Notes under the pieces: generated by a model
Seen by the model: the letters and a program-made list of their open reading frames with translations, nothing else
Told to the model about the DNA's origin: nothing
The model's database searches: none
Shown here: piece by piece, positions 7,926-33,431 of the stretch
How positions within the stretch are numbered: the stretch's first letter is position 1
Layout of the letters: the number at the start of each line of letters is the position of its first letter
Position numbers and translations under genes: made by a program
NCBI GenBank assembly: GCA_963934255.1
Contig: CAWVXU010000014.1
Span: forward strand, 1-41,496
DNA from: an uncultured Fibrobacterales bacterium
Lineage (GTDB): Bacteria; Fibrobacterota; Fibrobacteria; Fibrobacterales; CAWVXU01
Direction of reading: 5' to 3'
Length of the DNA stretch: 41,496 nucleotides

Positions 7926-7954
7926 TTAAGAATCAGCGAGCTTAAAGTCAATAA

Positions 7955-7995
7955 AAATATAGCGCCCTGAAGTATTTACTTCGGGCGCTATATTT
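7955..7995. terminator. Probable bidirectional intrinsic terminator
   Basis: AAATATAGCGCCC-T-GAAGTA-TT-TACTTC-GGGCGCTATATTT inverted repeat between convergent genes. Confidence 0.8.
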
Positions 7996-8070
7996 ATTCA
8001 TACATCGTTTCTTTATCAGAATTTAGAATTAAACTAATTTATGGAAATATCATTGGGTCTTAGGTTTAAA

Positions 8071-9624: not shown

Positions 9625-9735
9625 TGTATTTACTCCGGCTCAACAAATACTATTATAGCATAAAAGATCAATATTATTCAAGAGACAATCGGAACTTATC
9701 TACCTCAAATTTTGAATGTTAGTATATTTCTATCC

Positions 9736-10206
9736 ATGAAAAAACAGCATCTGACACCCGATGGATTTGAAAAATATAAGGCCGAATGGCATCAATTAAA
9801 ATTTGTTGATCGTCCCGAAATGCAAGAACAAGTTCGAGTTGCCGCAGCAGAAGGTGATCGTTCTGAAAATGCAGCCTATACTTACGGAAAAATGCGTCTT
9901 CGCCATATTGACCAGAGACTCAGGAAATTAGATCGTATCTTAGACCATAGTATTGTCGTTAAAAATGTTATTCAAGATGGAACTATTCGATTTGGAGCTC
10001 GAGTTGAACTCATCGACCTCAAAACTTCTAAAATGCTGTCATATCAACTTGTAGGAAGCCATGAAGTTGCTCCACTTGACGGAAGAATTTCCATGGAATC
10101 TCCCATGGGCGCGCAACTCAAAGGCAAATCTAAAGATAATATTATTGAAATACAATCACCTCGTGGCCCCAAACAATTTTTGATTAAAAAGGTACGTTAT
10201 ACATGA
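9736..10206 (+). CDS. greB: Transcription elongation factor GreB
   Basis: LTPDG, AAAEGDRSENAAYTYGKMRLRHID (GreB-type), ISMESPMG. ATG 9736 preferred. Confidence 0.85.
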   Translation: MKKQHLTPDGFEKYKAEWHQLKFVDRPEMQEQVRVAAAEGDRSENAAYTYGKMRLRHIDQRLRKLDRILDHSIVVKNVIQDGTIRFGARVELIDLKTSKMLSYQLVGSHEVAPLDGRISMESPMGAQLKGKSKDNIIEIQSPRGPKQFLIKKVRYT

Positions 10207-11030
10207 CTCAAAATATTAATTCTCCAACTGATAATCATGCTCAAACCGCTACTCATACTTATGTCGACACACATTGCCACCTAGACAGTATTTTGACTAA
10301 GGCCAATATTCTCGATTATACAACTCTAAAGCAAGAATTCCCTCCCGAGTTTGAGAAAGCAATACACATTGCCTGTTCGAAAGAATCCATTAATTTTGCT
10401 TGTGAAATCATTCAACAGCCTGAAGTTTACGCAGGCGTTGGCATACACCCACATGATGCTAAAGATTATGACGACACCCTCCATCAAGAAATTATTTCAC
10501 TGATGGCGAACCCTAAGGTCCTTGCATGGGGGGAAATCGGATTGGATTACCATTATGATTTTTCTCCTAGAGAAATTCAAAAAATTGTATTTGAAAGACA
10601 ATTAATACAAGCTGTTGAAATGGAAAAGCCTATCATCATCCACACTCGAGAGGCCAATGAAGATACAATTGAAATCCTTACCAAACATTTAAATGAAGAA
10701 ACTCGAGTTCACATTCATTGCTTTACTGGCACCAATGATTTTGCACAGCAATTACTCAAGCTCCCAGGTACCATCTATTTCGGTTTTACAGGTGTCATCA
10801 CATTTAGAAATGCCGATGCCATTCGAGAGGCACTTCAAAACATCCCTATAGAGCTAATCCTTTTAGAGACCGATGCTCCCTATATGGCACCAATTCCATT
10901 TCGAGGTAAACCAGCCCATCCCGGCCACATTCCCTTCATAGCCGCCAAAATTGCTGAGGTCAAATCACTTCCAGTCAAAGAAGTGTTTGATATTTGTCGT
11001 GAGAATACTCGCAATATGTATGGGATTTGA
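10203..11030 (+). CDS. tatD: TatD family metal-dependent DNase
   Basis: DTHCHL, GIHPH, GEIGLDY, IIIHTRE, HCFTG, LETDAPY; ATGA overlap with greB. Confidence 0.9.
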   Translation: MTQNINSPTDNHAQTATHTYVDTHCHLDSILTKANILDYTTLKQEFPPEFEKAIHIACSKESINFACEIIQQPEVYAGVGIHPHDAKDYDDTLHQEIISLMANPKVLAWGEIGLDYHYDFSPREIQKIVFERQLIQAVEMEKPIIIHTREANEDTIEILTKHLNEETRVHIHCFTGTNDFAQQLLKLPGTIYFGFTGVITFRNADAIREALQNIPIELILLETDAPYMAPIPFRGKPAHPGHIPFIAAKIAEVKSLPVKEVFDICRENTRNMYGI

Positions 11031-11043
11031 TATAAAAATTAAT

Positions 11044-11688
11044 ATGAAATTATTGAGTTCTAAAATTCGTGTTTTGGCTCTAGCGATTCTTATTTTCGTT
11101 GGTATTCTCTGTATTTTAGTGCCCTATCGATATACTTCAATCATGGCTCAAAACCATATATACAGTGATGTCAAGTCAATCCCTTTTCAAAAAGTCGGTC
11201 TTTTATTAGGAACAAGTAAGTTTAGACCCAACAATACTCTAAACCTTTTTTACAAGAATCGAATTGCTGCTACTATTCTACTCTACCGTGAAAAAAAAAT
11301 AAGCCATATTTTAATCAGTGGCGACAATGCACACCGAAGCTACAATGAACCCAACACCATCCTTAAAGATCTACTTAAAGCCGGAATCCCTCGTGGAAAG
11401 ATCACCTTAGATTACGCAGGGTTTAGGACACTAGATTCAGTGATTCGAGCCCACCTTATATTTGGTCAAAAAAGTTTTACTATCATCAGTCAACAGTTTC
11501 ATAATGAACGAGCGGTATACATAGCCCATCAATATGGGATCCAAGCTAACGCATATAACGCCAAAACCCCACCCGGCTTATCCAAAATGAAAATGGAAAT
11601 TCGTGAGCATTTAGCCCGAATATTGATGTTTTGGGACATAATATTTCAGACAGAACCAAAATTTTTAGGCTCTCAAGAAATCATCTAA
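11044..11688 (+). CDS. sanA: SanA/YdcF (DUF218) membrane-anchored protein
   Basis: N-terminal TM, GLLLGTSK, ISGDN, YNEP, LDYAGFRTLDSVIRA, SQQFHNERA, REHLAR. ATG 11044 preferred. Confidence 0.85.
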   Translation: MKLLSSKIRVLALAILIFVGILCILVPYRYTSIMAQNHIYSDVKSIPFQKVGLLLGTSKFRPNNTLNLFYKNRIAATILLYREKKISHILISGDNAHRSYNEPNTILKDLLKAGIPRGKITLDYAGFRTLDSVIRAHLIFGQKSFTIISQQFHNERAVYIAHQYGIQANAYNAKTPPGLSKMKMEIREHLARILMFWDIIFQTEPKFLGSQEII

Positions 11689-11742
11689 TACTTCATAAAT
11701 CAACCTTTTTTTGTATATTTAGGCCCAATTGTACGACTTTAA

Positions 11743-13980
<2,238 letters not shown>

Positions 13981-18161: not shown

Positions 18162-19652
18162 ATGGCATTAGGATTAACAACAACCGCATCTATCACTAAA
18201 AAAACAAGTGTAGCATTCTTCATTAAAGAAGGAAAACCTCAATTTGGAGTCAAAAGTAAAGAATTATCCAGCCTGACTCAAAAGGGGTTAGATCAACTTG
18301 TCAAATTAGAAGCTAAAGGCTCAAGCACTGCTACCTTTTTGGGAGAAGACTCTCCTAGCGCAGTCGCTCAGATTAAAGCCATTCCGGGACTTGATGAATC
18401 CGAAGAAATCCGCATGGCAGCATATAACCTCGGTCTTGAACTCAAGAAACAAGGTTTAATCAAAACTGTGATCCTTGTGTCTGACATCAGCTCATCAAAT
18501 TTCACTGCAGTAGTTGAGGGCTTACTTTTTGCTCAGTACAGCTTCGATACTCACAAATCTGCAAAAAGCAAAGCCTTACCCATTCAATGGAAGGTCGCAA
18601 TCTCTGAGACTGCCAAAAAAGAACTCACTGCTGTTTTTAAATCCACAAGTAAAATCATCGCTGGCGTTGAAACCACACGTGATCTTGTGAACGAGCCAGG
18701 CGGAAGCTTGACTCCTCAAATTTTTGTCAAGAGAATTCAACAAACTTTTAAAGATGATTCAAGAATCACACTGAAAGTCCGCAACAAAGCTCAACTTGAA
18801 AAAGAAGGTTTTAACGGACTTCTGACTGTAGGCCGGGGTGGGATTAACCCACCAGTGATGGTCACAATTAATTATAAGCCTAAAAAAGTATCACCAGCAG
18901 CTAAGGGCACTAAATTAGGCCTTGTTGGTAAAGGTGTCACTTTTGATACAGGCGGTATCTCGCTCAAACCACCAGGAACCATGTGGGAAATGCGCATGGA
19001 CATGGGTGGAGCAGGAACTGTCATCGGTGCCATGCAAGCCATCGCTGATCTTGATCTTCCTATTCCAGTTGTAGCAGTTGTGTGTTTAACTGAAAATCGC
19101 CCAGGTGTAGATGCAGTTCTTCCTGGTGATATTTTCACAGCCAAAAACGGCAAAACAATTCAAGTTGAAAATACGGATGCTGAAGGTCGATTGATTTTGA
19201 CTGATGGACTAGCTGAAGCTGGTCTTCAAAAAGCAACTCATATTATTGACTTAGCTACTTTGACTGGCGCAATTATTCGTGCTATTGGTATGAGCATCAC
19301 AGGACTCTTTTCAAATAACGAAGAGCTTGCTGATAAGATTACCCAAGCCGGTGCCAAATCAGGTGAGAAATTTTGGCGACTACCGCTTGATATGGAATAT
19401 CGTGCAAGTTTAGATGACAAAGTGGCTGACATGAAAAACATCGGTGGCGACGCTGGCTCCATTACAGCTGGACTCTTTTTACAAGAGTTTGTTCCAGAGA
19501 ATACTCCATGGGCTCATTTGGATATTGCAGGTACTGCATTTACAACCAAACCTTGGAAATATTACAACTGGGGTGCAACAGGGTGGGGCGTCAGATCTCT
19601 CGTTAACTTGACTGAAGAACTAGCCCGCGACAAAAATTCTAAAAATAAATAG
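18162..19652 (+). CDS. pepA: Leucyl aminopeptidase (M17)
   Basis: LVGKGVTFDTGGISLK, DMGGA, NTDAEGRL, DLATLTGA, WAHLDIAG; GAGGA RBS. Confidence 0.92.
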   Translation: MALGLTTTASITKKTSVAFFIKEGKPQFGVKSKELSSLTQKGLDQLVKLEAKGSSTATFLGEDSPSAVAQIKAIPGLDESEEIRMAAYNLGLELKKQGLIKTVILVSDISSSNFTAVVEGLLFAQYSFDTHKSAKSKALPIQWKVAISETAKKELTAVFKSTSKIIAGVETTRDLVNEPGGSLTPQIFVKRIQQTFKDDSRITLKVRNKAQLEKEGFNGLLTVGRGGINPPVMVTINYKPKKVSPAAKGTKLGLVGKGVTFDTGGISLKPPGTMWEMRMDMGGAGTVIGAMQAIADLDLPIPVVAVVCLTENRPGVDAVLPGDIFTAKNGKTIQVENTDAEGRLILTDGLAEAGLQKATHIIDLATLTGAIIRAIGMSITGLFSNNEELADKITQAGAKSGEKFWRLPLDMEYRASLDDKVADMKNIGGDAGSITAGLFLQEFVPENTPWAHLDIAGTAFTTKPWKYYNWGATGWGVRSLVNLTEELARDKNSKNK

Positions 19653-19674
19653 CATATATGCCTAAGGAATTAAG

Positions 19675-21465
19675 ATGGATAAAGTAGCAGTATTAGATTT
19701 CGGTGGACAATATGCACACCTCATTGCCAACAGAGTGAGACGCCTTGGTGTCTATACCGAAATCCAACACTCCAATGTAGAAGCTTCTGCACTCAAAGGT
19801 TACACCGGAATTATACTTTCTGGTGGTCCTTCAAGTGTATATAAAGACGGTGCACCTACGATTGATGCTGGTATTTTTGAGCTGGGTATCCCTATTCTTG
19901 GTATTTGTTATGGACATCAAATTATGAATCAATCTTTGGGCGGAAAAGTTCAAGGTTCTGATGTTCATGAATTTGGTGTGGCGGATTTGGAAGTAACTGC
20001 TTCGACGAACCCACTACTCAAAGACCTCCCTACTCTCAGCCCGATGTGGATGAGTCATGGAGACAAAGTTGCCATTGTTGCACCTGGATTTCAATCTATT
20101 GCTATTACTGAGGATTGTGATACAGCAGCTGTAGCCAACATGGACAAGAACTTCTATGGGATTCAATTCCACCCCGAAGTCACTCATTCCAAATTCGGTT
20201 CCAAGTTGATGGAAAACTTTCTAGACATTTGTGGCTGTGCCAAAGATTGGTCTATGAAGTCTTATTTCAAAGATATTGAAGCACGCATCATCGCTCAAAC
20301 TCCAACGCATAAAAAAATATTCCTCCTAGTCTCTGGTGGTGTTGATTCTACAGTCGCTTTTGTCATGCTCAATAAAATTTTCGGTAAAGATCGAGTCTTT
20401 GGACTTCACATTGATACTGGAATGATGCGCATGAATGAGTCAGCTGAAGTGGTTAAGTTTCTCCACAAAGCTGATATGGAAAACTTAAAAGTCGTTGATG
20501 ACTCTGATTTGTTTTTAGATGCCCTCAAAGGTAAAATAGAACCAGAAGACAAACGACATACCATAGGTGAGACCTTCCTTAGATCCAAAGAAATCGAAAG
20601 TGAAAACTTAGGTTTTGATCCTAAAGAATGGATCCTTGCTCAAGGTACAATATACCCAGATACAATTGAATCTGGCGGCACTGATAATGCAGATACAATC
20701 AAAACTCATCACAATCGGGTGCAGGGTATCTTGGACTTAATGGCCGAAGGCCTCATCCTAGAGCCACTAGCTGAACTATATAAAGACGAAGTCCGCGAAC
20801 TCGGTGAAGAGCTGGGGATCCCTCGTGAGCTTGTTTGGCGTCACCCATTTCCAGGACCAGGACTTGGAGTCAGATTGCTCTGCTCAAATGGGGAGCCGGT
20901 TGGTAAATCAAATTCTGAAATCCCCGGACTTGAAGCATATCTTGGTGAGCAAAATTGGCAAGGGCTAGCACTACCTATTCAATCTGTCGGTGTTCAAGGC
21001 GATGCCAGATCATACGCACAGCCTTTTGTCCTCCAAGGCAAACACTCTTGGAAAGAATGCGAAAAAGCTTCAACCACGATTACTAATAGGTTCCGTGACC
21101 TCAATCGAGTAGTCCTTGAAATAGGCACTCTGACGGGTGAATATCAAGTCATCCCTCATTACTGCGAAAGAGAACGATTTGATTTGCTACGCAAAATGGA
21201 CTCGCTTTGTACCGACTTTCTCTATGAGCACGACCTCTACGATGCTGTTTGGCAAATGCCCGTAGTACTCTTGCCTCTCACGGTACAAGACAAACCTGTA
21301 CTTGTACTTCGCCCAGTTAATTCTAGTGAAGCAATGACGGCTAATTTCTGTGAAATTGACCCCAATTTACTCGAGCAACTTTGGCAGACATTAAAAGAAG
21401 CTGGCGCTGGTGGAGTATTGTATGACATCACTCATAAACCGCCTGGCACCATCGAATGGGAATAA
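19675..21465 (+). CDS. guaA: GMP synthase (glutamine-hydrolysing)
   Basis: LDFGGQY, GICYGHQ, QFHPEV, SGGVDS, IKTHHN, RHPFPGPGLGVR, KPPGTIEWE. Confidence 0.95.
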   Translation: MDKVAVLDFGGQYAHLIANRVRRLGVYTEIQHSNVEASALKGYTGIILSGGPSSVYKDGAPTIDAGIFELGIPILGICYGHQIMNQSLGGKVQGSDVHEFGVADLEVTASTNPLLKDLPTLSPMWMSHGDKVAIVAPGFQSIAITEDCDTAAVANMDKNFYGIQFHPEVTHSKFGSKLMENFLDICGCAKDWSMKSYFKDIEARIIAQTPTHKKIFLLVSGGVDSTVAFVMLNKIFGKDRVFGLHIDTGMMRMNESAEVVKFLHKADMENLKVVDDSDLFLDALKGKIEPEDKRHTIGETFLRSKEIESENLGFDPKEWILAQGTIYPDTIESGGTDNADTIKTHHNRVQGILDLMAEGLILEPLAELYKDEVRELGEELGIPRELVWRHPFPGPGLGVRLLCSNGEPVGKSNSEIPGLEAYLGEQNWQGLALPIQSVGVQGDARSYAQPFVLQGKHSWKECEKASTTITNRFRDLNRVVLEIGTLTGEYQVIPHYCERERFDLLRKMDSLCTDFLYEHDLYDAVWQMPVVLLPLTVQDKPVLVLRPVNSSEAMTANFCEIDPNLLEQLWQTLKEAGAGGVLYDITHKPPGTIEWE

Positions 21466-21474
21466 GTAAAATCT

Positions 21475-22668
21475 ATGTTTGATTTAGACGATAGCAGAAC
21501 TGCTAAAGAAAAATGTATCCTCATTGGTGTGGCAGCTGGTAAAATACGCATACACCAAGCCGAAGATTACATTGCTGAACTTCGCCGCCTCGCTGACACA
21601 GCAGAGGCCGAAGTCATTGAAACTATAATTCAACGTATGCCTAAGTACAATGCTTCGACTTTAGTGGGCTCTGGTAAACTAGAGGAAATACGCCAACGCT
21701 GTGAAATAACTGAAGCCAAACTCGTCATATTTGATGATGACTTAAGCGGGTCTCAAGCTAAAAATATTGAAGCCGTTTTGAAAAATGTAAAAGTACTCGA
21801 TCGCTCCGCGCTCATACTAGACATCTTCTCCAAACATGCGCGTACCCGTGAATCCAAAATTATGGTAGAGATTGCGCAAATGGAATACACGATGCCGCGT
21901 CTGACCAACATGTGGACTCACCTCTCCCGTCAAGTAGGTGGTATTGGTATGCGTGGACCAGGTGAATCACAGCTAGAAACAGATAAACGCCTTGTTCGCG
22001 CTCGTATCTCTGACCTCAAAAAACAACTCAAGAAAATTGAACGTGACCGTCAAGCTCAAGCTGACAAAAGAAACGTGACATTCCATATCGCCACAGTCGG
22101 CTACACCAATGCAGGCAAGTCTACTCTCACCAATCGTCTGACCAATGCCGGTGTATTAGTTGCGGATAAATTATTTGCCACACTTGATTCGACAACTCGT
22201 AAACTCTTTTTGAGTCATGAATGTGAAGTTGTAGTATCTGACACCGTTGGATTTATTCGCAAATTACCTCACCATCTAGTAGCAACATTTAGATCAACAT
22301 TAAGCGTGGTAGCCGAAGCTGACTTGGTGATGCATGTTTTGGATGCCTCGGCTCATGATTATACCGAGCATTTAGATGTGACCAATGAAGTCCTTTCAGG
22401 CATGATTAACGAGACAATTCCTAAACTTCTAGTACTCAACAAATGCGACACTCTCACTGAGGAGGAGCTAGTTGAATTCAAAGAAAAGTTTCCTGATGCA
22501 GTCTGTATTTCTGCTACTGAAAACACAGGTATTGATGAACTCAAACACCGTCTAGTCAAGGAGTCTGATACTTGGAAAGCCAAGCAGTTGGTGGGCGAGC
22601 GCAATATTGAGAAGGAACGTAAAAAACCATGGGCCGCTAGAGAAGACGATTGGTCTAAGATTAAATAA
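21475..22668 (+). CDS. hflX: Ribosome-splitting GTPase HflX
   Basis: RGPGESQLETD, GYTNAGKST, LFATLD, DTVGFI, NKCD. Confidence 0.95.
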   Translation: MFDLDDSRTAKEKCILIGVAAGKIRIHQAEDYIAELRRLADTAEAEVIETIIQRMPKYNASTLVGSGKLEEIRQRCEITEAKLVIFDDDLSGSQAKNIEAVLKNVKVLDRSALILDIFSKHARTRESKIMVEIAQMEYTMPRLTNMWTHLSRQVGGIGMRGPGESQLETDKRLVRARISDLKKQLKKIERDRQAQADKRNVTFHIATVGYTNAGKSTLTNRLTNAGVLVADKLFATLDSTTRKLFLSHECEVVVSDTVGFIRKLPHHLVATFRSTLSVVAEADLVMHVLDASAHDYTEHLDVTNEVLSGMINETIPKLLVLNKCDTLTEEELVEFKEKFPDAVCISATENTGIDELKHRLVKESDTWKAKQLVGERNIEKERKKPWAAREDDWSKIK

Positions 22669-22697
22669 CCAATGGTATTAGAATATAAGGAATCAAG

Positions 22698-23543
22698 ATG
22701 AGCGCAAACATTACAGGTAAAACAGGGGTTATCGGAATTTTGGGCTATCCTGTCGAGCATTCCTTTTCCCCTCCTATGCATAATGCAGCGTTTAAAGATT
22801 TGGGGCTCGACTTTGTCTATGTCCCACTTCCTACTGCACCTGAGGATTTAGGTGATGCCGTCAAAGGTTTCCGCGCTATGGGAATGACCGGCGCCAATGT
22901 CACTATCCCCCATAAGACTGAAATTGGTCAATATCTCGATGCACTTGACCCCATTGCTAAACTCACCGGCAGCGTCAACACCCTCTATTACAAAGACGGC
23001 AAACTTCGGGGCACAAGTACTGATCCATTTGGAGCCCTTGAACACATCCGACGACGAAATATTTCACTTCGAAATAAAACCATTGCCATTCTCGGATATG
23101 GTGGAGCAGCACGCGCAATTGCATTTGAAATCTGCTTACAATATCCGGATCAAAAGCTGATAATTCAAGGCCGTAACCTTGAAAAAGGCAGTACTCTTGT
23201 CAAAGAACTCAAGAAAAGCACTACAGCTACAGTTGAATTTATTCAAGATTACCTAGTAATGAGTCAAGAAGCTGAAATCATAATAAATTGTACTTCACTA
23301 GGAATGCACCCGAACGAAGATACCTCTCCATGTGGATCAGAAGATTTCAAATCATCACAGGTGATTTATGATATTGTCTACGCACCTAGAGAAACACTTT
23401 GGATGAAAAATGCCAAAGCCCAAGGTTGTCAAGTCATCGGTGGATTAGGTATGCTTGTTTTTCAAGGCCTCAAGTCATTTGAACTTTGGACCGGCCAGGA
23501 ACCTAAGAGTGATTTGATGTTCAAAGCTGTGGATCATTTATAG
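22698..23543 (+). CDS. aroE: Shikimate dehydrogenase
   Basis: HSFSPPMHN, NVTIPHK, SVNT, GYGGAARA, DIVYAP, MLVFQG. Confidence 0.92.
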   Translation: MSANITGKTGVIGILGYPVEHSFSPPMHNAAFKDLGLDFVYVPLPTAPEDLGDAVKGFRAMGMTGANVTIPHKTEIGQYLDALDPIAKLTGSVNTLYYKDGKLRGTSTDPFGALEHIRRRNISLRNKTIAILGYGGAARAIAFEICLQYPDQKLIIQGRNLEKGSTLVKELKKSTTATVEFIQDYLVMSQEAEIIINCTSLGMHPNEDTSPCGSEDFKSSQVIYDIVYAPRETLWMKNAKAQGCQVIGGLGMLVFQGLKSFELWTGQEPKSDLMFKAVDHL

Positions 23544-23904
23544 GTTTATCGCCTATTAAAAAGAAATAATTTTGACTCAAAATATACTTGTTCGCTAGCA
23601 AGCAGAACCTGATGTATTACTCTGGCAAATTGCCTTTTTTATTTCTCTGTCTATCAAATTGGTATAATACATGTTTTTTCCTCATTATTTCGCATTTCTA
23701 AGTAAAATCTCGCTACCCCTCACGTCAAAATGATTTATATTCTTAGTTAACTATAATATCGTATACCATCCTTGTATGCATTTCGATGCTATTTCTAACT
23801 CCCATACTTTAAATAAGTTAGAGGAAATTGAAACAAGGACATTTTTGAGAATTCAAACGAATTTAAAATGAAAATGAGTGATATACCGAAGAAAGTTGTG
23901 GGTC

Positions 23905-25527
23905 ATGATGAACCATCCATCTCCTAAGAAGAATGTCTTCTTTACTGGCTTTATGGCCACGGGTAAAACACGTATTGGTGAAGCCACAGCTCGGTCTCTT
24001 GGCTGGCAATTTGTGGACACTGATCGTTATATTGAATCAGAGCAAGGCAGAAGCATTTCAGAGATTTTTGAAAAAGAAGGCGAAGCCTACTTTAGAGATC
24101 TAGAATTCAAAGCAATCCAAACACTTACTCGTAAAGAATTTCACATCATATCACTTGGAGGTGGAGCGCTTACCCAATCTCGTGTAATGAAGCTCATCAA
24201 AGCTGAAGGTATTCTAGTCAGACTTTGGGCACCTGTTGAAGTGATTTCGGAGCGTATCGGTCGTAAAAATACTCGTCCTTTAATGCAAGGACTTAATGAC
24301 GAGGAGCGTCGAAATAAAGTTGCCGCAATGCTCGCAGCTCGTGAACCATACTATTCTCATGCTGACATTTCCATCGAGTCAAGAGAAGACACCTCAGTTG
24401 AACTTTTAGTCCGTCAACTCAGATCTAAAATCGCTGCCTGGAATTACAAAGCTGTTGAAGTTAAAACGAGTCAAGGTAATTACCCTATATTTATTGGAGA
24501 AAACTTCCTTGATTTGACGCAGGCAATATTACGTGGGCTGAATCTTCACACTGATTACCTGATTGTCACTGACACAAATGTCGCTCGTGCTCAACGACAC
24601 AATTTAAAGAAACTCACCAAGCAAGCAAATGGCGCTAGAAATTTTCGGTTCCCTGCCGGTGAAGAATACAAGAATGTACAAACACTCAATCGTCTATATA
24701 CATATATGTTGAGAAAAGGATACTCTCGCAAGACTACATTGATTCAGTTTTCGGGTGGTGTTACAGGTGATATGGCAGGCTATGGTGCTGCATCTTACCA
24801 AAGAGGGATTCCTTTTATCCAAGTACCCACGACATTACTATCTATGGTAGATAGTTCAGTGGGCGGTAAAGTTGCCGTCAATCACGCACTCGGCAAAAAC
24901 ATGATCGGTGCTTTTTATCAGCCCAAGGCTGTTTTGATTAATTTAGAAGTACTCGAGACCCTTGAGCCATCTGAATATTTAGCTGGACTCGCCGAAGTGG
25001 TCAAATACGGAATCATTTGGGATGAAGAATTTTTCAAACTCCTTGAGGACAACGTCGAACCTCTCAAAAATCGCGACTTAGGCATCTTAAAAACAGTGGT
25101 GACAAAGTGCTGTAAAATTAAAGCTGAAGTGGTATCTCAAGATGAAACTGAACAAGGTATTCGAGCCATCTTGAATTACGGCCACACATTTGGCCATGCT
25201 ATTGAAAAACTCACAGAATACAAGGTCTACTCACATGGAACTGCCGTTTCACTTGGGATGCGCGTTGCTGGTCAGCTCGCACAAAATCTCGGACTTTGGA
25301 CTGCTGCAGAAAACACTCGTCAGACTAGACTACTCGACGCGCTTGGATTCCCCAAAACTCACAAAGTTGATATTAATGCTGCTTGGGAGGCAATGGGTAT
25401 TGACAAAAAGGTGGACCAGGGAAAACGAGTTTATATACTCCCCACCAAAATAGGCCATGTCAAGAAAGTTCAAGACACACCAACCACTCAAATTGAGATT
25501 GCATGGAAAGCCATTGACTCTGAGTGA
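23905..25527 (+). CDS. aroKB: Bifunctional shikimate kinase / 3-dehydroquinate synthase (AroK-AroB fusion)
   Basis: N-terminal GFMATGKT, DTD, GEAYFRDLE, SLGGG, RPL; C-terminal GEEYK, GGVTGD, PTTLLSMVDSSVGGK, LNYGHTFGHA. Start is ATG 23905 or 23908 (GTG 23878 possible). Confidence 0.92.
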   Translation: MMNHPSPKKNVFFTGFMATGKTRIGEATARSLGWQFVDTDRYIESEQGRSISEIFEKEGEAYFRDLEFKAIQTLTRKEFHIISLGGGALTQSRVMKLIKAEGILVRLWAPVEVISERIGRKNTRPLMQGLNDEERRNKVAAMLAAREPYYSHADISIESREDTSVELLVRQLRSKIAAWNYKAVEVKTSQGNYPIFIGENFLDLTQAILRGLNLHTDYLIVTDTNVARAQRHNLKKLTKQANGARNFRFPAGEEYKNVQTLNRLYTYMLRKGYSRKTTLIQFSGGVTGDMAGYGAASYQRGIPFIQVPTTLLSMVDSSVGGKVAVNHALGKNMIGAFYQPKAVLINLEVLETLEPSEYLAGLAEVVKYGIIWDEEFFKLLEDNVEPLKNRDLGILKTVVTKCCKIKAEVVSQDETEQGIRAILNYGHTFGHAIEKLTEYKVYSHGTAVSLGMRVAGQLAQNLGLWTAAENTRQTRLLDALGFPKTHKVDINAAWEAMGIDKKVDQGKRVYILPTKIGHVKKVQDTPTTQIEIAWKAIDSE

Positions 25528-26574: not shown

Positions 26575-26609
26575 CAAAAAAATGCCTACTTCAATCAAAG
26601 CAGGCATTT
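26575..26609 (-). terminator. Intrinsic terminator of the deacetylase-epimerase unit, possibly bidirectional
   Basis: Minus strand AAATGCCTGCTT-TGATTG-AAGTAGGCATTT followed by a T run. Confidence 0.8.
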
Positions 26610-26632: not shown

Positions 26633-27574
26633 CTATTTAACTGAAACAGCACACCAAGTTTCAACCCATTCTCCAGGTGCCAAATCTTTGCGACCTAGTC
26701 CATCACGATTAAAACTATCCGTCGCACCAGATATTGGTTCGATCGCAATAGACTCACGATTATCAGGTATATAAACTTGAACAAACTTAAAGAACTCACG
26801 GTCTTGATGTAAGATTAATTTCCTGTCTTCAAACTCAAGAACAGTCTTTGAATCACTCGGCACTGAAATTGCGTGATCGAGTTCTACAGTTTCAACAGAA
26901 GCACCATTTCTAAAATCTAGCTCCGTACCTTCTACCGAAGGGATTTCACCCGTAGGGATAAGATCACTATCAACAGCGACATAGACATCTGACTTCATTG
27001 TCATTGAATGACCCGCAAGCCCTTCGCCAATTTTGAAATACGGATGCCACCCAAGAGCAATTGGAGCGACCCCTTGGCCTAAATTTTTCATCTTAAAAGA
27101 AATCATAAAGCCATTTGCATCAAGTAGATACTTGGCTTCGTAGGCCACTTTAAACGGATAACCAGCAAAAGCTTCATCATCAATCTCAAAACTTAAAACG
27201 AGGTGTGCAGACTCAACTCCACACGCTTCAGATTCAATTTTCATTTCTTGATTATAAATCAACCCATGAATCGAAGAACCATCCGAGGGACAATTTACTG
27301 GAAGATGGTGAACGTCCCCTTGATAAAAATATTTAGCGTCAGGGATGCGGTCATTAAAAGGGAAAAGTAACCGGCCTCTAAAGCTGTGATTATCTGTATA
27401 ATGTTTCTCATCAACTTTAAGAAGCTCTCGAAGACCTGATTCATCAAGCAAAGTAATTTGATTGACGGTGCCACCAAGTGAAGGAACGATGACAACAGAT
27501 TCGTTCGTCTGGCTATTCACCAGACTCACGACATCATAATTACCATCATGGAATTTTTTAATTTCAAAACTCAT
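26633..27574 (-). CDS. Aldose 1-epimerase (galactose mutarotase-like)
   Basis: LFPFNDRI, IHGL, GYPF, GWHPYF, IPTGE, LDH, IAIEP. Confidence 0.88.
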   Translation of the reverse strand: MSFEIKKFHDGNYDVVSLVNSQTNESVVIVPSLGGTVNQITLLDESGLRELLKVDEKHYTDNHSFRGRLLFPFNDRIPDAKYFYQGDVHHLPVNCPSDGSSIHGLIYNQEMKIESEACGVESAHLVLSFEIDDEAFAGYPFKVAYEAKYLLDANGFMISFKMKNLGQGVAPIALGWHPYFKIGEGLAGHSMTMKSDVYVAVDSDLIPTGEIPSVEGTELDFRNGASVETVELDHAISVPSDSKTVLEFEDRKLILHQDREFFKFVQVYIPDNRESIAIEPISGATDSFNRDGLGRKDLAPGEWVETWCAVSVK

Positions 27575-27584
27575 GAGTACCTAC

Positions 27585-28394
27585 TTATTCAAAAAGATGT
27601 TTGTACTTCGAAGGGCGGTAAAATTCAAAAGTCAGATCACGTAAAAACTCAACTGAACCTGATCGACGAACTGACTCAATGAGAGAGGCGATTTGTGGTT
27701 GTGAACGATAAACTTCAATCGATTTAATTTTCTTTTCAAGAGCTTCATCAGAAGACTCAATTCTAATATCAGGCTCACCTCCAAAATCACAATAGATAGC
27801 CATCTCATAGACAGATGGAATAGCCGGTAATTTATCACCCAGCTCAGGCCAAATATCACCTGAAGCATGGAAAACCGAAATCAGTAATTCTTGATATGTC
27901 AGTTTATGATCTGGATGATAGTCAGAACCACCAGGTACAAAAACACGAGTCGGGCGCACACGACGAAGTGACTTGGTATAAGAGGGCTGTAGACCACTTA
28001 GGCCTTCGACAGCAACTGGGCTTGATTCGTCTGCAAAGCGGGCACCAGAATATATATTTAAAGAACCATCAGGATATCCCAAAAACTCAATATTTTTAAT
28101 TCCAAAAAGATCAAAACTCTCGCGAGTTTCAGCTTCACGTACATCTTTTATAGTTGTCTTTTGTTCAGGAGTACAATATCCCATTTGACCATTAGTCGTA
28201 ATAACCATGCTCATTTTAACACCCTCTTCAAGTGCTTTTTGCATGATAAGACCGCCACCTAGGACTATGTCGTCATCATGAGGAGCAACAAACAACCAGT
28301 GTTCATCTTCGCCTTTCCAATCTTTAAAAATATCGCTCAAATTACTTGAGTGACGAACTTGACCCTTTTCACGTATTGATAGACGAGTGCTCAT
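27585..28394 (-). CDS. PIG-L/LmbE family Zn-dependent de-N-acetylase
   Basis: VAPHDDD, TNGQMG, REAE, YPDG, HPDH, YRSQ; AAGGA RBS. Confidence 0.88.
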   Translation of the reverse strand: MSTRLSIREKGQVRHSSNLSDIFKDWKGEDEHWLFVAPHDDDIVLGGGLIMQKALEEGVKMSMVITTNGQMGYCTPEQKTTIKDVREAETRESFDLFGIKNIEFLGYPDGSLNIYSGARFADESSPVAVEGLSGLQPSYTKSLRRVRPTRVFVPGGSDYHPDHKLTYQELLISVFHASGDIWPELGDKLPAIPSVYEMAIYCDFGGEPDIRIESSDEALEKKIKSIEVYRSQPQIASLIESVRRSGSVEFLRDLTFEFYRPSKYKHLFE

Positions 28395-28716
28395 AAAATA
28401 ATCCTTTTACATTTTTATTAAAATATAGCCATTTTTGAGCTATTTTACTCCAAACACAATTAACTCAAAAACTATTTTCGGATTGTGTTAGCATCCTATT
28501 TGGCTTCATAGTCTCGGTACCATATATTGTCCATTTTTATGTTTTGACATTATCCAGAAATTATTTTGTGCATTGGCTTTGGATATATAGTACAATTTAT
28601 GATAATATACGTATTAGTATTGAGAAGAAGAATAAGATTGAAGGGCTTTACACAAACTGAGTAAAAATAATTTTAAATCAGATGATTTTAATTTCAGCCT
28701 TAAAGTAGAAATAACA

Positions 28717-31137
28717 ATGGATCAATTACCCAAACTATCGCCTTATGAATTTGGCTTCGACCGCGAAGAGCTAGGTTTTAGAGCCAATGACGGTAGCTAT
28801 TTTGATTCTCTTTTTATTGCCGCACCTAATGTCACTTGGGGCTACGCAGAAGGTAAAATCACTAACGATAACGTTGAAGAAGTTTTTGAAAATTGGGATA
28901 GAAACAATAGAACACTGTATCTTTTTAATGGTGGTAAACCCATAATCCATTTGGTAGATTATGGTAATCTACCGATCCCTTCGATCAAGGTTAAAAATGT
29001 AGCAAACCGTTATTTTAATATGTGGTTTAACGAAGGAATAATGGGTCATCAAGCCATTATAAATGCTCCCGCAGTTTACCAGCTAATTGGAAAGTTTTTG
29101 GGTGACAAAAACCCCAACATTAAACGGACTTTTTATAAAAAATGGGATGTAGCCATCTCATCTCTTAATATCATATTTCTAATAGAAAATGCTGATTTTG
29201 AAGCACAGTTTAATTCTAACGTACTTGCCCCACCTGATATATTTCTCAAAGAATCTCAATTCATGGGTAATTTAATTCCATTTCCACCCGGATGTTTTGT
29301 TTCTACCAATGGTATTGGAAAAGTTTTTATTTATCAAATTCGTAAAAATCTATTCTATACATTTAGCTACGGAGACTTAACTCACGAAGATTTTAAACAT
29401 TACATAAAAGCTCAAATAGCAATTGGCAAGCAAAACCCTGATCAAGAACTATTTCTCATTAACAATAGTCTTCACTTATCTAGCTCTTCCTTCAAATCCC
29501 GCAAAATGGAGGCTGAATTTGTTATGAGTGCTGAATATCCATTTAAAAATTGCGCCCTAATAACAAATGGACTCACCTTAATTTCTGCTAAAATCATACA
29601 ATCTTTTAATTCAATTTTCAAAGAGCGACTTCATCTTTTTAATACCATAGAGGATGCGTTTAAAAGTTTCAGTGAAGAGCCATCACCTTCTTACGAGTCT
29701 GAGCCCATTAATGTAGATACAACTATTGAGGAAAAACTTGAACTTGCACAAAATCAAATTAAGCAAATGCAAGAAGAGCGCAATCAAAATATAGAATGGG
29801 TAACTCATGCTCTTGGTGGAATTACTTGGAATAATCAGAACCACAACTTTAATCTCCCTACTAATATCAACGAAAACCCTTACAAAGATATTTATTACTC
29901 AATATTATTAGTAAATACTGACCTCCGAGAAATCATTTCTGACCGAGATGATTATTTGAAAAAAATTGAGACAGAAAAAGAAAAAGCTGAAGGTGCAGTT
30001 AAAACCAAAGCAAGCTTCCTGTCCACCATGTCGCATGAAATCCGAACTCCACTTAATGCTGTTATAGGGCTTAGTGAGATTCTCATTGATGAAAATAATG
30101 ATCCCAAACAACTTGATAACCTTGAAACATTAGCAAATTCCGGTAAAAACCTTTTATCACTCATAAATGATATCCTTGATTTTTCTAAAATTGAATCCGA
30201 TTTAGAATTAGAAAATCACACATTTAGTATCACTTATCTAATCAACTCAATTAGCAAGGCTTTTACTCCAATGCTAAGACAAAAAGACTTGGTATTTAAT
30301 ACACATATATCAGAAGAACTTCAAGATATCCAGTTAAAAAGTGACTCAACCCGATTAACTCAGATCTTAAACAATCTGATTGGAAATTCTGTTAAATTCA
30401 CTCACGAAGGTGAAATTAGCCTTTACGTCACTGAACTTTCTCGGTCAGACAAATTAGTGAAAATTCAATTTCAAGTATTGGATTCAGGCATAGGAATTAA
30501 AGAATCTAGACTCTCTTCAATTTGGGATGAATTCACTCAAATCAGTCAAAGTGGCAACCGTCAATTTGGAGGCAGTGGACTCGGCCTTACTATTACAAAA
30601 AAGCTCATTGAAATGTTTCACGGAAATGTGACCGTAGAAAGCCAAGAGGGCGTGGGGACCCAATTCTCATTTGAAATAACTTTCCCTTACGAAAAAATCA
30701 ACTTAAATGTTATCCAAGATGTTGGATTTGATGAAACTACACTCATTGGACTTAAGGTACTCGTTATAGATGACAACCATATCAACCTTAAGGTCGCTAA
30801 CAAACACCTTGAAAAATTTGGCTGTGCCACCACACTCGCACTGAGTGGTAGTCAAGCAATCCTTCTCTATCAAAAATCAACTTTTGATATTATACTGATG
30901 GATTTACAAATGCCAATTATGGATGGCTTTGAGACTGCTCAGGAATTGATTTCAATTAACCCCAATGCCAAGATAATCGCACTCACTGCAGACGTATTTC
31001 CTGAGACCAAAGAGCGCGTGACAAATAGCTCGATGATATCATACCTTACCAAGCCCATTATCCGTAAAAAGCTTTTTAGTGAGTTATCCAAGATTCACAA
31101 TCTTAAATCTCCACCTTTCCAACTACCCCAATCATAA
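28717..31137 (+). CDS. Soluble hybrid sensor histidine kinase (HisKA-HATPase-REC)
   Basis: FLSTMSHEIRTPLN, QILNNLIGNSVKFT, DSGIGI, GGSGLGL, receiver VIDDN...LMDLQMPIMDG...KP; no clear TM helix. Confidence 0.9.
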   Translation: MDQLPKLSPYEFGFDREELGFRANDGSYFDSLFIAAPNVTWGYAEGKITNDNVEEVFENWDRNNRTLYLFNGGKPIIHLVDYGNLPIPSIKVKNVANRYFNMWFNEGIMGHQAIINAPAVYQLIGKFLGDKNPNIKRTFYKKWDVAISSLNIIFLIENADFEAQFNSNVLAPPDIFLKESQFMGNLIPFPPGCFVSTNGIGKVFIYQIRKNLFYTFSYGDLTHEDFKHYIKAQIAIGKQNPDQELFLINNSLHLSSSSFKSRKMEAEFVMSAEYPFKNCALITNGLTLISAKIIQSFNSIFKERLHLFNTIEDAFKSFSEEPSPSYESEPINVDTTIEEKLELAQNQIKQMQEERNQNIEWVTHALGGITWNNQNHNFNLPTNINENPYKDIYYSILLVNTDLREIISDRDDYLKKIETEKEKAEGAVKTKASFLSTMSHEIRTPLNAVIGLSEILIDENNDPKQLDNLETLANSGKNLLSLINDILDFSKIESDLELENHTFSITYLINSISKAFTPMLRQKDLVFNTHISEELQDIQLKSDSTRLTQILNNLIGNSVKFTHEGEISLYVTELSRSDKLVKIQFQVLDSGIGIKESRLSSIWDEFTQISQSGNRQFGGSGLGLTITKKLIEMFHGNVTVESQEGVGTQFSFEITFPYEKINLNVIQDVGFDETTLIGLKVLVIDDNHINLKVANKHLEKFGCATTLALSGSQAILLYQKSTFDIILMDLQMPIMDGFETAQELISINPNAKIIALTADVFPETKERVTNSSMISYLTKPIIRKKLFSELSKIHNLKSPPFQLPQS

Positions 31138-31143
31138 ATAACT

Positions 31144-31177
31144 AAAAAAAGGGCTGTCAATAAAATGACAGCCCCTT
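31144..31177 (-). terminator. Intrinsic terminator of the pfk-like/SIS unit, possibly bidirectional
   Basis: GGGCTGTCA-ATAAAA-TGACAGCCC perfect 9-bp stem, followed by T7 on the minus strand. Confidence 0.88.
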
Positions 31178-31198: not shown

Positions 31199-32212
31199 CT
31201 ATCCAATAAACTCATTGCCCACTTTACGTGCACGAACAGGTTTGTCAAGATCAATACCAGTTTGGACTCCAACTTCAACAAGAAGATTCCATCCAGCAGC
31301 AAGTTCAAGGTAAGCACCCATATCACCGGCGTCAGGAATTTTGTAAGTTGGAAATGAAGTTTCGCGTGTAGAAATAGCAACAAGACCAATTCCAACGCCA
31401 TCAACTAATACTTCTCGGTATTTAGCTTCTTCAGCTTCCCACGGGTTGACAACAATAATGGCCTCATCAGCATTCATTACTTCTTCAATTCCGTGAGCAG
31501 CATATGTGCCTTCAAGGAAGTCTGATTTTTTACGAGTGATTTCGTTTGTTTTAAGACGAAGCTCTTCAGCCACACCATTATTTTTACCAGCCCAGTATAG
31601 GATAGGAGATTCAATAAGCGGAGCAATAACGTCTTCAGGGATAGAAGTTGTCAGAACAGCTTCCATTTGATCACCCAGTTTTTGAAGATCAGGAAGTGCA
31701 ACACCATTAAGAGTGCGCAATGCTAGCTCATAAACAAGGGCCTGCTCAGTCACTGATTTAGTTGCAGCTACAGCTTCTTCATTACCACAAGTAAGAACAT
31801 ATCCACCGTTAGTTGATTCAGCGATGATTGGAGTTCCAGCATGTGCTACAACGCCCATCAATGATTTGACAGATGCATTGGCTTTGAGATGACGAATAAG
31901 GCGAACTCCCTCTTTCGTTTTACCTGAGTTTGAAGCCACAAAAATTGAATGGTCATTCAACTTGTAGTCCATTGCTTGAGTTGCACCTTCAGTGAAGATA
32001 CGCTGAGGGTAACCAGCAGAAAGTGCATTAGCGATAGCATTTTTTGCAGGGAAGATGCGAGATGAACCTTCACCTGTGAGTAAAATTTTATCACCAAGCT
32101 GGGCAGCTAGGTCAGTAATTGCACCAGGTTGGAGTTTGCGAACGACGTCAGCAGTTTCAAGCATTTCTTTAACAAGCGCAAATTTACTGTGTTGTGGGTT
32201 ATTAATATCCAT
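31199..32212 (-). CDS. Double-SIS sugar-phosphate isomerase/deaminase (GlmS C-terminal-like, no glutaminase domain)
   Basis: TGEGSS, ASNSGKTKE, EEAVAATKS, EELRLKTNEI, AHG and DLDKP parallel the GlmS isomerase motifs; 337 aa. Confidence 0.82.
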   Translation of the reverse strand: MDINNPQHSKFALVKEMLETADVVRKLQPGAITDLAAQLGDKILLTGEGSSRIFPAKNAIANALSAGYPQRIFTEGATQAMDYKLNDHSIFVASNSGKTKEGVRLIRHLKANASVKSLMGVVAHAGTPIIAESTNGGYVLTCGNEEAVAATKSVTEQALVYELALRTLNGVALPDLQKLGDQMEAVLTTSIPEDVIAPLIESPILYWAGKNNGVAEELRLKTNEITRKKSDFLEGTYAAHGIEEVMNADEAIIVVNPWEAEEAKYREVLVDGVGIGLVAISTRETSFPTYKIPDAGDMGAYLELAAGWNLLVEVGVQTGIDLDKPVRARKVGNEFIG

Positions 32213-32222
32213 TTTATACCTC

Positions 32223-33431
32223 TTAAACTTCTGCTTTTACTTTAGCAAGAATTGAAAAATCGTGTGGTTCGTCTAATAGTGGTCTGATATATTCGTAGAA
32301 AGCTTCAGAAACAAAGTTTCCTTCTTCATTGAAATATTCAGCAGGCATTTCTTTTGCAGCAACTGCTACGTCTGAAAGTGGTGCATCACCATATTCAATC
32401 GTATAAGGGTTATTAGATACGCGGTTGATTGTTACCATAACTGCAGTTTTGCCTTCGTCATGACCTTTTTTAACAGCGTTTACACCGCAAAGATATGCCT
32501 CTTCAAGGTCTGTTTTTGATGCGCGGTCAATAGCACACATTGCAAGTGATTCCACGATTTGGAATTCACCACGCCAGCCAAATTTACCAGCGATAATTTT
32601 GTGCATATTAAGAGCAGCAGATGTACCACCCATTGCACCAAGCTCAGGATTACCGTGTTTGTCAGCTTGCTCTGGAGCAGATACATAAGTACCATCATCC
32701 CACTTAGCACCTTCACCAACAACGATTGATACCCAACCGTATTTTGCTTTAGTCGCTTCAACGTCAGCAAGAAATTTTTCTTTTGATACAGGACATTCAG
32801 GAACATAAATTAAGTGAGGAGCATCAGATTCTGATTTTTTACCAACAACAGAAGCACACGCCAACCAACCAGCATCGCGACCAACAGTTTGATAGATAAC
32901 GTATTGATCAACACGTTGCATATCAGATGCTAGACGACCAGCTTGTTGTACTGAGCGGGCGACATAATTTGCTGCAGATGCATAACCAGGAGTGTGATCA
33001 GTGCAGTACAAGTCATTGTCAACCGTTTTGGGAACACCTATTCCTTTTAATTCCCAATCACCATGAACACGACAGTATTCTTCAATGCGATGGATAGTAT
33101 CCATCGTGTCGTTTCCACCAATAAGGAAGAAGTAGCGGATGTTATACTTTTTAAGTTGTTCCATAATAAGTGGGAAGTCAGAATCTTTTACTTTATGACG
33201 GCTTGAGCCTAAGGCAGATCCAGGAGTCGAACGCAGTCCTTCAATAACTTCAGGAGATTCTTTACCAAGGTCGACAACCTCGTCGTTCATGAATCCTTCA
33301 ATACCAAAAGACATACCAAATACATTATCGATATTTTCAGAAGCTAGAGCTTGCTGAATTACTCCACATAGAGAAGAGTTTATTACTGAAGTAGGTCCAC
33401 CAGATTGGCCAACAAGTGCATTTCCACGCAT
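32223..33431 (-). CDS. PfkA-family kinase with PPi-type signature and divergent acceptor site
   Basis: GQSGGPTSVIN, LGSSR, IGGNDT, PKTVDNDL, DHTPGY, VGEG; MGR replaced by VGR; AGGAG RBS. Confidence 0.88.
   Translation of the reverse strand: MRGNALVGQSGGPTSVINSSLCGVIQQALASENIDNVFGMSFGIEGFMNDEVVDLGKESPEVIEGLRSTPGSALGSSRHKVKDSDFPLIMEQLKKYNIRYFFLIGGNDTMDTIHRIEEYCRVHGDWELKGIGVPKTVDNDLYCTDHTPGYASAANYVARSVQQAGRLASDMQRVDQYVIYQTVGRDAGWLACASVVGKKSESDAPHLIYVPECPVSKEKFLADVEATKAKYGWVSIVVGEGAKWDDGTYVSAPEQADKHGNPELGAMGGTSAALNMHKIIAGKFGWRGEFQIVESLAMCAIDRASKTDLEEAYLCGVNAVKKGHDEGKTAVMVTINRVSNNPYTIEYGDAPLSDVAVAAKEMPAEYFNEEGNFVSEAFYEYIRPLLDEPHDFSILAKVKAEV

Follow-up and report, generated by a model that had tools for sequence, protein, structure and literature searches.

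What does a phosphofructokinase phosphorylate once the residues that hold fructose 6-phosphate (F6P) have been replaced and its transfer machinery has been kept? This question is raised by one gene in a stretch of 41,496 nucleotides, referred to below as the window, which is contig CAWVXU010000014.1 of an uncultured Fibrobacterales bacterium (assembly GCA_963934255.1). The original prediction, made from the letters alone, saw in this gene a PfkA-fold kinase of the inorganic pyrophosphate (PPi) type whose acceptor may be a free amino sugar, not F6P. That proposal is supported in part: it gains from a distinct clade, from two other phosphofructokinases (PFKs) in the genome and from an amino-sugar gene context, while its arguments from R162 and H249 (Escherichia coli numbering) fail. 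The comparisons described here tip the balance slightly in favour of a PPi-dependent glucosamine (GlcN), or more generally hexosamine, 6-kinase that would work in a deacetylate-first route and would have evolved from a PPi-PFK of clade B2 type, a label which we take to designate the PRK14072-type enzymes. The kinase and the motifs on which the argument turns are the following.

32223..33431, minus strand: PfkA-fold kinase of 402 aa, a variant of the PRK14072-type PPi-PFKs and the proposed PPi-dependent glucosamine kinase
33108..33119, minus strand: GGND motif (residues 105-108), with the PPi-type residue D108 (G104 in E. coli)
33012..33032, minus strand: PKTVDND motif (residues 134-140), with the PPi-type residue K135 and with D138, equivalent to the catalytic base D127 of E. 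coli
32877..32891, minus strand: QTVGR (residues 181-185) replacing ExMGR (E167Q, M169V)
32625..32651, minus strand: clade-specific loop NPELGAMGG, with E263 inside a 3-residue insertion
32523..32573, minus strand: rebuilt 6-phosphate pocket RGEFQIVESLAMCAIDR, with R243 replaced by E289, a new E294, R252 replaced by M298 and a new R303

By sequence and by fold, the kinase belongs to the PRK14072 (clade B2-like) lineage of PPi-PFKs. It scores 399 bits against the NF010675/PRK14072 hidden Markov model (HMM) of this subfamily, for a curated cut-off of 273; PF00365 is its sole match in a Pfam scan, and all of its 29 PDB matches are PFK sequences. The nearest solved structures are two PPi-PFKs of the same type, 3hno from Nitrosospira and 3k2q from Marinobacter (36-37% identity, Z 48-49, root-mean-square deviation (rmsd) 1.7-1.8, template modelling (TM) score 0.85-0.86). 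The AlphaFold model, with a predicted local distance difference test (pLDDT) value of 91.4, superposes on 3hno across 363 residues with a TM score of 0.86, a Z of 49.3 and an rmsd of 1.7.

Conservation was measured on an alignment of 208 sequences, made of the kinase, every fourth of its 119 other matches (30 sequences), those of 150 representatives that measure 370-470 aa, and the PFK open reading frames (ORFs) of at least 300 aa from the loci; L026 (64 residues) was excluded throughout, from the alignment and from the trees. The rows split without intermediates into 71 that share at least 52% identity with the kinase, the variant rows, and 137 that share at most 42%, the outgroup. In midpoint-rooted FastTree trees, from which the chimera P0194 and the fragment L022 were finally excluded, the 70 full-length variants lie on one side of a single branch with a support of 100, which is still 99 after removal of the four diagnostic segments. 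The VGR/ESLxMC-type sequences thus form one clade, a point that the original prediction had left to a tree. Its members are spread over eight phyla (Fibrobacterota, Planctomycetota, Spirochaetota, Acidobacteriota, Myxococcota, Pseudomonadota, Ca. Firestonebacteria, plus Bacteroidales) and share the signature Q-x-V/I-G-R and RGEFQxxESxxM. Where databases name them, they carry ordinary PFK labels, so that automatic annotation does hide the enzyme as had been anticipated. A plasmid search returned seven matches, each under 40% identity. Other lineages of the PFK subfamily also alter the MGR motif or the catalytic DND (VGR, LGR, KGR, loss of PKTIDND), namely rows P0136, P0145, P0148, P0212, P0220, P0226, P0231, P0240, P0242, P0252 and P0256; these sequences suggest further non-canonical or inactive PFK offshoots.

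The donor side is intact. Relative to E. coli PfkA (from NC_000913), the kinase carries the changes G104 to D108 and G124 to K135, and retains D127 (D138), R171 (R185) and E222 (E240, within VGEG at residues 238-241). The GGND, PKTVDND and VGEG motifs are thus all present as first quoted, and GGxD, PKT(V/I)DND, the catalytic aspartate, R171 and E222 are common to the kinase and the PRK14072 PPi-PFKs. K135, T136, D138 and D140 are each found in 71/71 variant rows and D108 in 70/71, the remaining row being gapped. An aspartate at E. coli position 104 with a lysine at 124 is described as the PPi signature in PMC12203962, which identifies D127 as the catalytic base and does not consider the lysine decisive by itself. 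We infer from this signature that PPi is the donor.

The acceptor side has been rebuilt. E167, M169, R243, H249 and R252 of E. coli PfkA are replaced by Q181, V183, E289, S295 and M298, respectively, and FQIVESLAMC occupies residues 290-299, so that the QTVGR and FQIVESLAMC readings of the original prediction are borne out. Position 181 is Q, and position 183 V or I, in 71/71 variant rows; the outgroup has E167 in 115/137 and M169 in 121/137. E289, E294, S295 and M298 are each found in all 71 variant rows, and the outgroup keeps R243 in 114/137 and R252 in 127/137. E263 is likewise present in 71/71 and falls in a gap in 134/137 outgroup rows; the model is of low confidence around its loop (pLDDT 57-68, residues 251-270). 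Unlike the PRK14072 PPi-PFKs, the clade therefore has V/I-GR, Q, E and M at MGR, E167, R243 and R252, together with the new E263, E294 and R303. Only eight of the 402 positions are at least 75% conserved in the outgroup yet lost in the clade: E167, M169, R243, R252, three mild changes, and a D to L change at 167. The residue changes, site-specific and accompanied by retention of the catalytic and PPi residues, are, given this conservation within the clade and in the outgroup, neither chance nor drift. The fold is kept and several acceptor contacts, E167, M169, R243 and R252, have changed together, as had been proposed by eye; the charge reversal from R243 to E289 and the new E294 and E263 had escaped notice. 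Two acceptor features that define PPi-PFKs, the MGR motif and the phosphate-pocket pair Arg243/Arg252, are absent, and the kinase should not be filed as a PPi-PFK.

In E. coli PfkA, M169 contacts the sugar, and R243 and R252 are ligands of the F6P phosphate in addition to R162 and H249. Published accounts describe R162 and H249 as binding the F6P phosphate and R243 as fructose-binding (10.64898/2026.02.05.704047, PMC12203962). The supposed loss of the R162 contact finds no support, because R/K173, present in 69/71 variant rows, pairs with R162 in the multiple alignment; the glutamine noted seven residues before V183 does exist here (Q176), but this position is K in 21/71 relatives. H249 has indeed become S295, yet this change is not diagnostic because canonical relatives do not conserve H249 either (L 31, Y 23 and T 22 of 137). 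R162 and H249 were accordingly rejected as diagnostic losses. For R252, the LQR segment aligns without gaps to 3k2q and 3hno and the model has a strand at 288-292 and a helix at 295-299, a pattern that would favour M298 as its equivalent.

The genes surrounding the kinase bear on the nature of the new acceptor.

31199..32212, minus strand: double-SIS protein of 337 aa (PF01380), 10 bp downstream of the kinase gene, probable glucosamine-6-phosphate deaminase
31148..31177, minus strand: hairpin resembling an intrinsic terminator after the kinase-SIS pair (12-pair stem and T run; consensus match only)
28717..31137, plus strand: hybrid sensor kinase between the two gene pairs, on the strand opposite to the kinase-SIS and deacetylase-mutarotase genes
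27585..28394, minus strand: PIG-L/LmbE deacetylase of 269 aa (PF02585), probable N-acetylglucosamine (GlcNAc) or chitobiose deacetylase
26633..27574, minus strand: aldose 1-epimerase (mutarotase) family protein of 313 aa (PF01263), 10 bp downstream of the deacetylase gene
26580..26609, minus strand: hairpin resembling an intrinsic terminator after the deacetylase-mutarotase pair (consensus match only)

In profile searches, the SIS protein matches the GlmS isomerase domain and the NagB-II deaminases 8eol and 3hba. Its orthologues keep, in 18/18 sequences, the phosphate loop S94-N95-S96-G97-T99 as well as K221, E224, H240 and the C-terminal lysine K330, to which we presumably can assign the roles of the matching GlmS residues. 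The protein falls below every curated HMM cut-off. The deacetylase has TT1542 and the archaeal diacetylchitobiose deacetylases as its nearest structures (E 4e-10 to 3e-8), and H39-D40-D41-D42, R86, D109, H160 and H163 are invariant in 6/6 sequences. The HxDD+H metal motif is found as H39-x-D41-D42 with H163; this motif is described in PMC4101496, as are an Arg, an Asp and a His that LmbE enzymes use on unphosphorylated GlcNAc cores.

The four genes are contiguous in genome G189, and the sensor kinase region of the window has a G+C content of 32-34% (28600-30399) versus 40-43% in the flanking genes. The sensor kinase is probably a later insertion that split a four-gene unit of which it is no core part; about 400 of its N-terminal residues have no Pfam match. 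A promoter scan of the window stayed at chance level (23 found versus 22 expected). Contigs from three marine metatranscriptome runs match the kinase and SIS genes in part, at 90-100% identity; the sensor kinase is matched as well, and such contigs are no evidence of transcription or co-transcription. The window also holds an ordinary fused shikimate kinase/3-dehydroquinate synthase gene (aroK-aroB) at 23878-25527.

The association was then followed in other genomes. These are related, so that the counts are not independent and no p-value is given. A SIS gene occurs in 48 of 97 variant loci and in none of 33 canonical loci, or in 27/36 versus 0/8 when only loci with 2.5 kb on both sides are counted; more generally, the amino-sugar neighbours are absent from all 33 canonical PPi-PFK loci, eight of which have 2.5 kb on both sides. 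Genome-wide, 31 of 40 carriers of the variant have the SIS gene against 2 of 30 hand-picked non-carriers. NagB passes its cut-off in 7 of the 9 carriers that lack SIS, which brings SIS or NagB to 38/40; in the last two, the contig ends about 800 nt downstream (G150) or the genome is a 1.8-Mb bin (G205). An evenly drawn sample of 201 Fibrobacterota genomes contains 17 carriers, from 10 families. The PIG-L deacetylase of the window's type (type 1) is found in 10 genomes and a type 2, sharing 23% identity with it, in three; all 13 are among the 17 carriers and neither type occurs in the 184 non-carriers, even though type 1 is often unlinked to the kinase. SIS is present in 9/17 carriers versus 3/184 non-carriers of this sample. 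One family of 22 genomes includes four carriers, and the three members that have both SIS and the type-2 deacetylase all belong to these four. GH20 (glycoside hydrolase family 20) genes occur in 10/17 carriers versus 3/30 non-carriers. No replacement kinase was found beside SIS among the ORFs scanned in G083 and G086, two of three genomes that have SIS and lack the variant.

At the loci themselves, the mutarotase family adjoins the kinase in 13/94, and a GlmA-like exo-glucosaminidase (GH35) gene, matching at 116 bits for a cut-off of 1500, is present in 3/94, two of which also have a NagB-like gene. An AgaS-like context is seen in 2/94: in G043, AgaS-like, GatZ/KbaZ-like and weak GH123-like genes surround the kinase, and in G042 an AgaS fusion lies directly downstream of it. 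Both carry an AgaS-like SIS domain fused to, or beside, a domain of about 400 aa without Pfam match (L146:5877-8252 in G042, L168:2-2378 in G043; 46% identical). Three other families recur. A PF07090 GATase1-like protein, close to PDB 3rht (E 2e-64) and not found in the host genome by BLAST, adjoins the kinase in 22/97 loci, often beside the deacetylase (e.g. L007:6146-6901). DUF4954, in part a left-handed beta-helix, lies beside SIS or the kinase in L004, L018, L074, L077, L143 and L160, and occurs at G000:C8 26195-28042; it neighbours the kinase in four loci and is also beside SIS in G086. Eight loci (L064, L068, L076, L078, L079, L102, L116, L155) have, next to the unit, a stand-alone CBM9-like protein that measures about 220 aa. 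No sulfoglycolysis aldolase or isomerase appeared among the recurrent neighbour families scanned, no search aimed at them having been made.

The host genome (G000; 2.67 Mb, 92% complete, of the same order as the Fibrobacterales genomes) looks like that of a chitin specialist, with 10 GH18 and 5 GH19 genes over cut-off (15 of chitinase families) and GH20 genes. The check for another canonical PFK is positive: two are present, of PRK06830 and PRK07085 type, both over cut-off with intact MGR motifs, and the second copies are canonical in 7/7 other carriers checked. NagA, NagB, Glk and a BadF-type kinase were not found in this 92% complete genome, nor was a GlmA-like gene, with the GlmA-like neighbour from related loci as query; a membrane pyrophosphatase was not found either. 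A PF01182 match was rejected as NagB, being 6-phosphogluconolactonase. A second PIG-L gene, on C27, was rejected as a member of the route, being BshB1; it belongs to a bshC-bshB1-glycosyltransferase row (G000:C27 ~19500-22900, L165:3525-6895) that is probably an operon for bacillithiol biosynthesis, here in a member of the Fibrobacterales. One further gene row of the host genome should be mentioned.

G000:C12 ~7400-13100 (L164:5912-11568), minus strand: row of phosphoglucosamine-mutase-like, CBM9-like, GH3 hexosaminidase-like and GH94 genes

Its GH94 protein (684 aa, no NCBIfam match at 1e-10) may phosphorolyse deacetylated or acetylated chitobiose, and its CBM9-like gene resembles the stand-alone ones mentioned above.

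Both the neighbouring genes and the co-occurrence counts suggest an amino-sugar substrate, more likely glucosamine than GlcNAc. In the proposed route, chitin would be cut to GlcNAc, the PIG-L enzyme would deacetylate this sugar in its free form, the mutarotase would provide the anomer required, and the kinase would convert GlcN and PPi to GlcN-6-P and Pi. Deamination of GlcN-6-P to F6P, the substrate of the two ordinary PFKs, would then fall to the SIS protein or, in other genomes, to NagB. The retained phosphate loop of SIS implies that some kinase must act before it. The variant tracks a deacetylase even where the two are unlinked, has a phosphate-requiring deaminase downstream, retains its transfer machinery and has turned two arginines into Glu and Met with two more acids; it thus fits the step between deacetylase and deaminase. 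Compared with F6P, the sugar would be bound end-for-end: its C6 hydroxyl would lie at D138, and the protonated amine on C2 would occupy what used to be the phosphate pocket, where E289, E294, Q291 and possibly E263 would form the lining. A hexosamine kinase would explain the two AgaS loci as well. The broader form of this proposal, in which the whole clade would be a reversible PPi-dependent GlcN or galactosamine (GalN) 6-kinase with end-for-end binding, serving an ATP-sparing, NagA-independent amino-sugar route in at least eight phyla and perhaps shuttling phosphate between GlcNAc-6-P and GlcN, is plausible but falls a little short of an even chance.

The T. kodakarensis (Thermococcus kodakarensis) chitin route offers the closest parallel. 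Its glucosamine kinase is ADP-dependent and its chitin route has a GlmD step. The archaeal route deacetylates first, Dac yielding free GlcN, and includes the exo-glucosaminidase GlmA (PMC6566704). The PIG-L deacetylase is shared and the deacetylate-first logic would be, as may be the SIS deaminase and, in three related loci, the GlmA-like gene; here, however, the system is bacterial, a PfkA-fold protein that bears the PPi signature takes the kinase slot, and the SIS protein of the window has no match to the GlmD model (NF041128) at E<=0.001. Known glucosamine kinases (EC 2.7.1.8) come from Vibrio cholerae, T. kodakarensis and an actinobacterium (SjGlcNK), the archaeal one being cited in the same source (PMC6520443). 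They have other folds and nucleotide donors, and the present kinase, with its PF00365/PFK matches only, is not homologous to them; at the level of sequence, this lowers family membership, not the proposed activity. The unrelated SjGlcNK reads the amine with a Gln and a Glu and has an adjacent SIS gene (PMC6520443), which parallels the reaction, the Gln and Glu amine recognition and the gene pair proposed here. Precedents for a PfkA-family protein with an acceptor other than F6P are the sulfofructose kinase SqiK, a PF00365 protein (PMC9594981), and PPi-PFKs that act on sedoheptulose-7-P (PMC12203962). Their acceptors are nevertheless anionic F6P analogues phosphorylated at C1, whereas the anion pocket of the kinase is charge-reversed.

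Several observations weigh against the glucosamine kinase. R303 is new and invariant in the clade (71/71 versus 1/136 outside) and might restore a phosphate site; in a pairwise profile alignment it stands opposite E. coli R252. R287 is another conserved basic residue, and R303, R/K173 or R287 may reach the phosphate pocket. Compensating basic residues were what the original prediction had named as its refutation, and R303 and the near-invariant R/K173 may be of that kind. Other kinases are at hand: the single ROK protein of the host genome lies beside a GH20 gene and could take over the phosphorylation, 20-21/94 loci contain genes of the ROK family, which comprises kinases and regulators, with two ROK kinases in Bacteroidales-like loci, and G047 has a hexokinase next to the deacetylase. 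In Chitinispirillum, phosphorylation of GlcNAc and GlcN is assigned by annotation to an ATP-dependent kinase (PMC4814513). NagA shows no anti-correlation with the kinase, although one was sought: it is at least as frequent in carriers, with 8/40 versus 2/30 non-carriers over cut-off and 23/40 versus 3/30 at E<=1e-30. Four of the 17 Fibrobacterota carriers lack both deacetylase types, and the host genome has a soluble pyrophosphatase. Finally, the product of the GH94-GH3-phosphomutase row would be a sugar phosphorylated at C6, which would have to be deacetylated without NagA, a hint that the PIG-L enzyme may accept a phosphorylated substrate.

This last point leads to an alternative that we hold to be unlikely, a PPi kinase for free sugars whose acceptor would be GlcNAc or hexoses at large, the PIG-L enzyme being a GlcNAc-6-phosphate deacetylase that replaces NagA; in a reversible version, the kinase could move phosphate off GlcNAc-6-P onto GlcN. 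The lost phosphate grip and the mutarotase link would suit any free aldose, and the GH94-mutase operon, with NagA not found, calls for deacetylation of some phosphorylated sugar. However, an acetamide would be a poorer match than a charged amine for the new acids E263, E289 and E294. The deacetylase retains the Arg, Asp and His of LmbE enzymes, the enzymes of its nearest structures have free chitobiose or GlcNAc conjugates as substrates, and GlmA-like neighbours would release GlcN.

It is quite improbable that the enzyme remains an F6P kinase with a remodelled pocket, fed by the adjacent deaminase in a pathway started by a ROK kinase. The PRK14072 cut-off is passed, an F6P-producing gene is adjacent, R/K173, R287 and R303 are conserved and ROK kinases are common neighbours. 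Against this, arginines kept in 114 and 127 of 137 relatives have become Glu and Met in 71/71, carriers keep canonical PFKs, and the tracking of an unlinked deacetylase is left unexplained. A Glu entering this site moreover lowers the F6P affinity of PFK (PMC12203962).

We give very little credence to a galactosamine unit in which the kinase would phosphorylate tagatose-6-P, or another ketose phosphate, after an AgaS-like deaminase. The AgaS-like, GatZ/KbaZ-like and GH123-like genes of G043 and the AgaS fusion of G042 speak for it, and the changes at E167 and M169 could reflect the C4 epimer, but tagatose-6-P still requires a phosphate pocket, this context is limited to 2/94 loci, and the usual SIS resembles GlmS/NagB-II and is replaced by NagB. 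The same two loci fit a GalN kinase, because tagatose-6-P 4-epimerases occur among KbaZ-like proteins. Free fructose or another neutral ketose, released from unphosphorylated glucosamine, or a non-hexosamine acceptor is just as remote: a ketose would retain the C1 chemistry of PFK, and the PF07090 (22/97 loci) and DUF4954 (4 loci) neighbours are unexplained, but the invariant phosphate-binding serines and threonine of SIS and the substitution by NagB indicate that deamination acts on a phosphorylated sugar.

What a PPi-dependent glucosamine kinase would add can be judged from the acceptors and donors in print. A 2025 review of the PFK superfamily gives F6P and sedoheptulose-7-P as acceptors (PMC12203962); with sulfofructose, the PfkA-family acceptors in print are all anionic ketoses phosphorylated at C1. 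PPi-dependent kinases comprised PFK, pyruvate phosphate dikinase and acetate kinase before myo-inositol kinase was added (PMC5931981). No description of a PfkA-fold amino-sugar kinase or of this clade was found in the open-access literature, supplements not covered. If true, an amino-sugar kinase that is built on the PFK scaffold and driven by PPi would represent a new acceptor class for a textbook enzyme and a new glucosamine kinase fold. A recurring mis-annotation would be corrected by the simple signature given above, and uncultured marine, sediment and gut bacteria would possess an energy-saving entry for the carbon and nitrogen of chitin.

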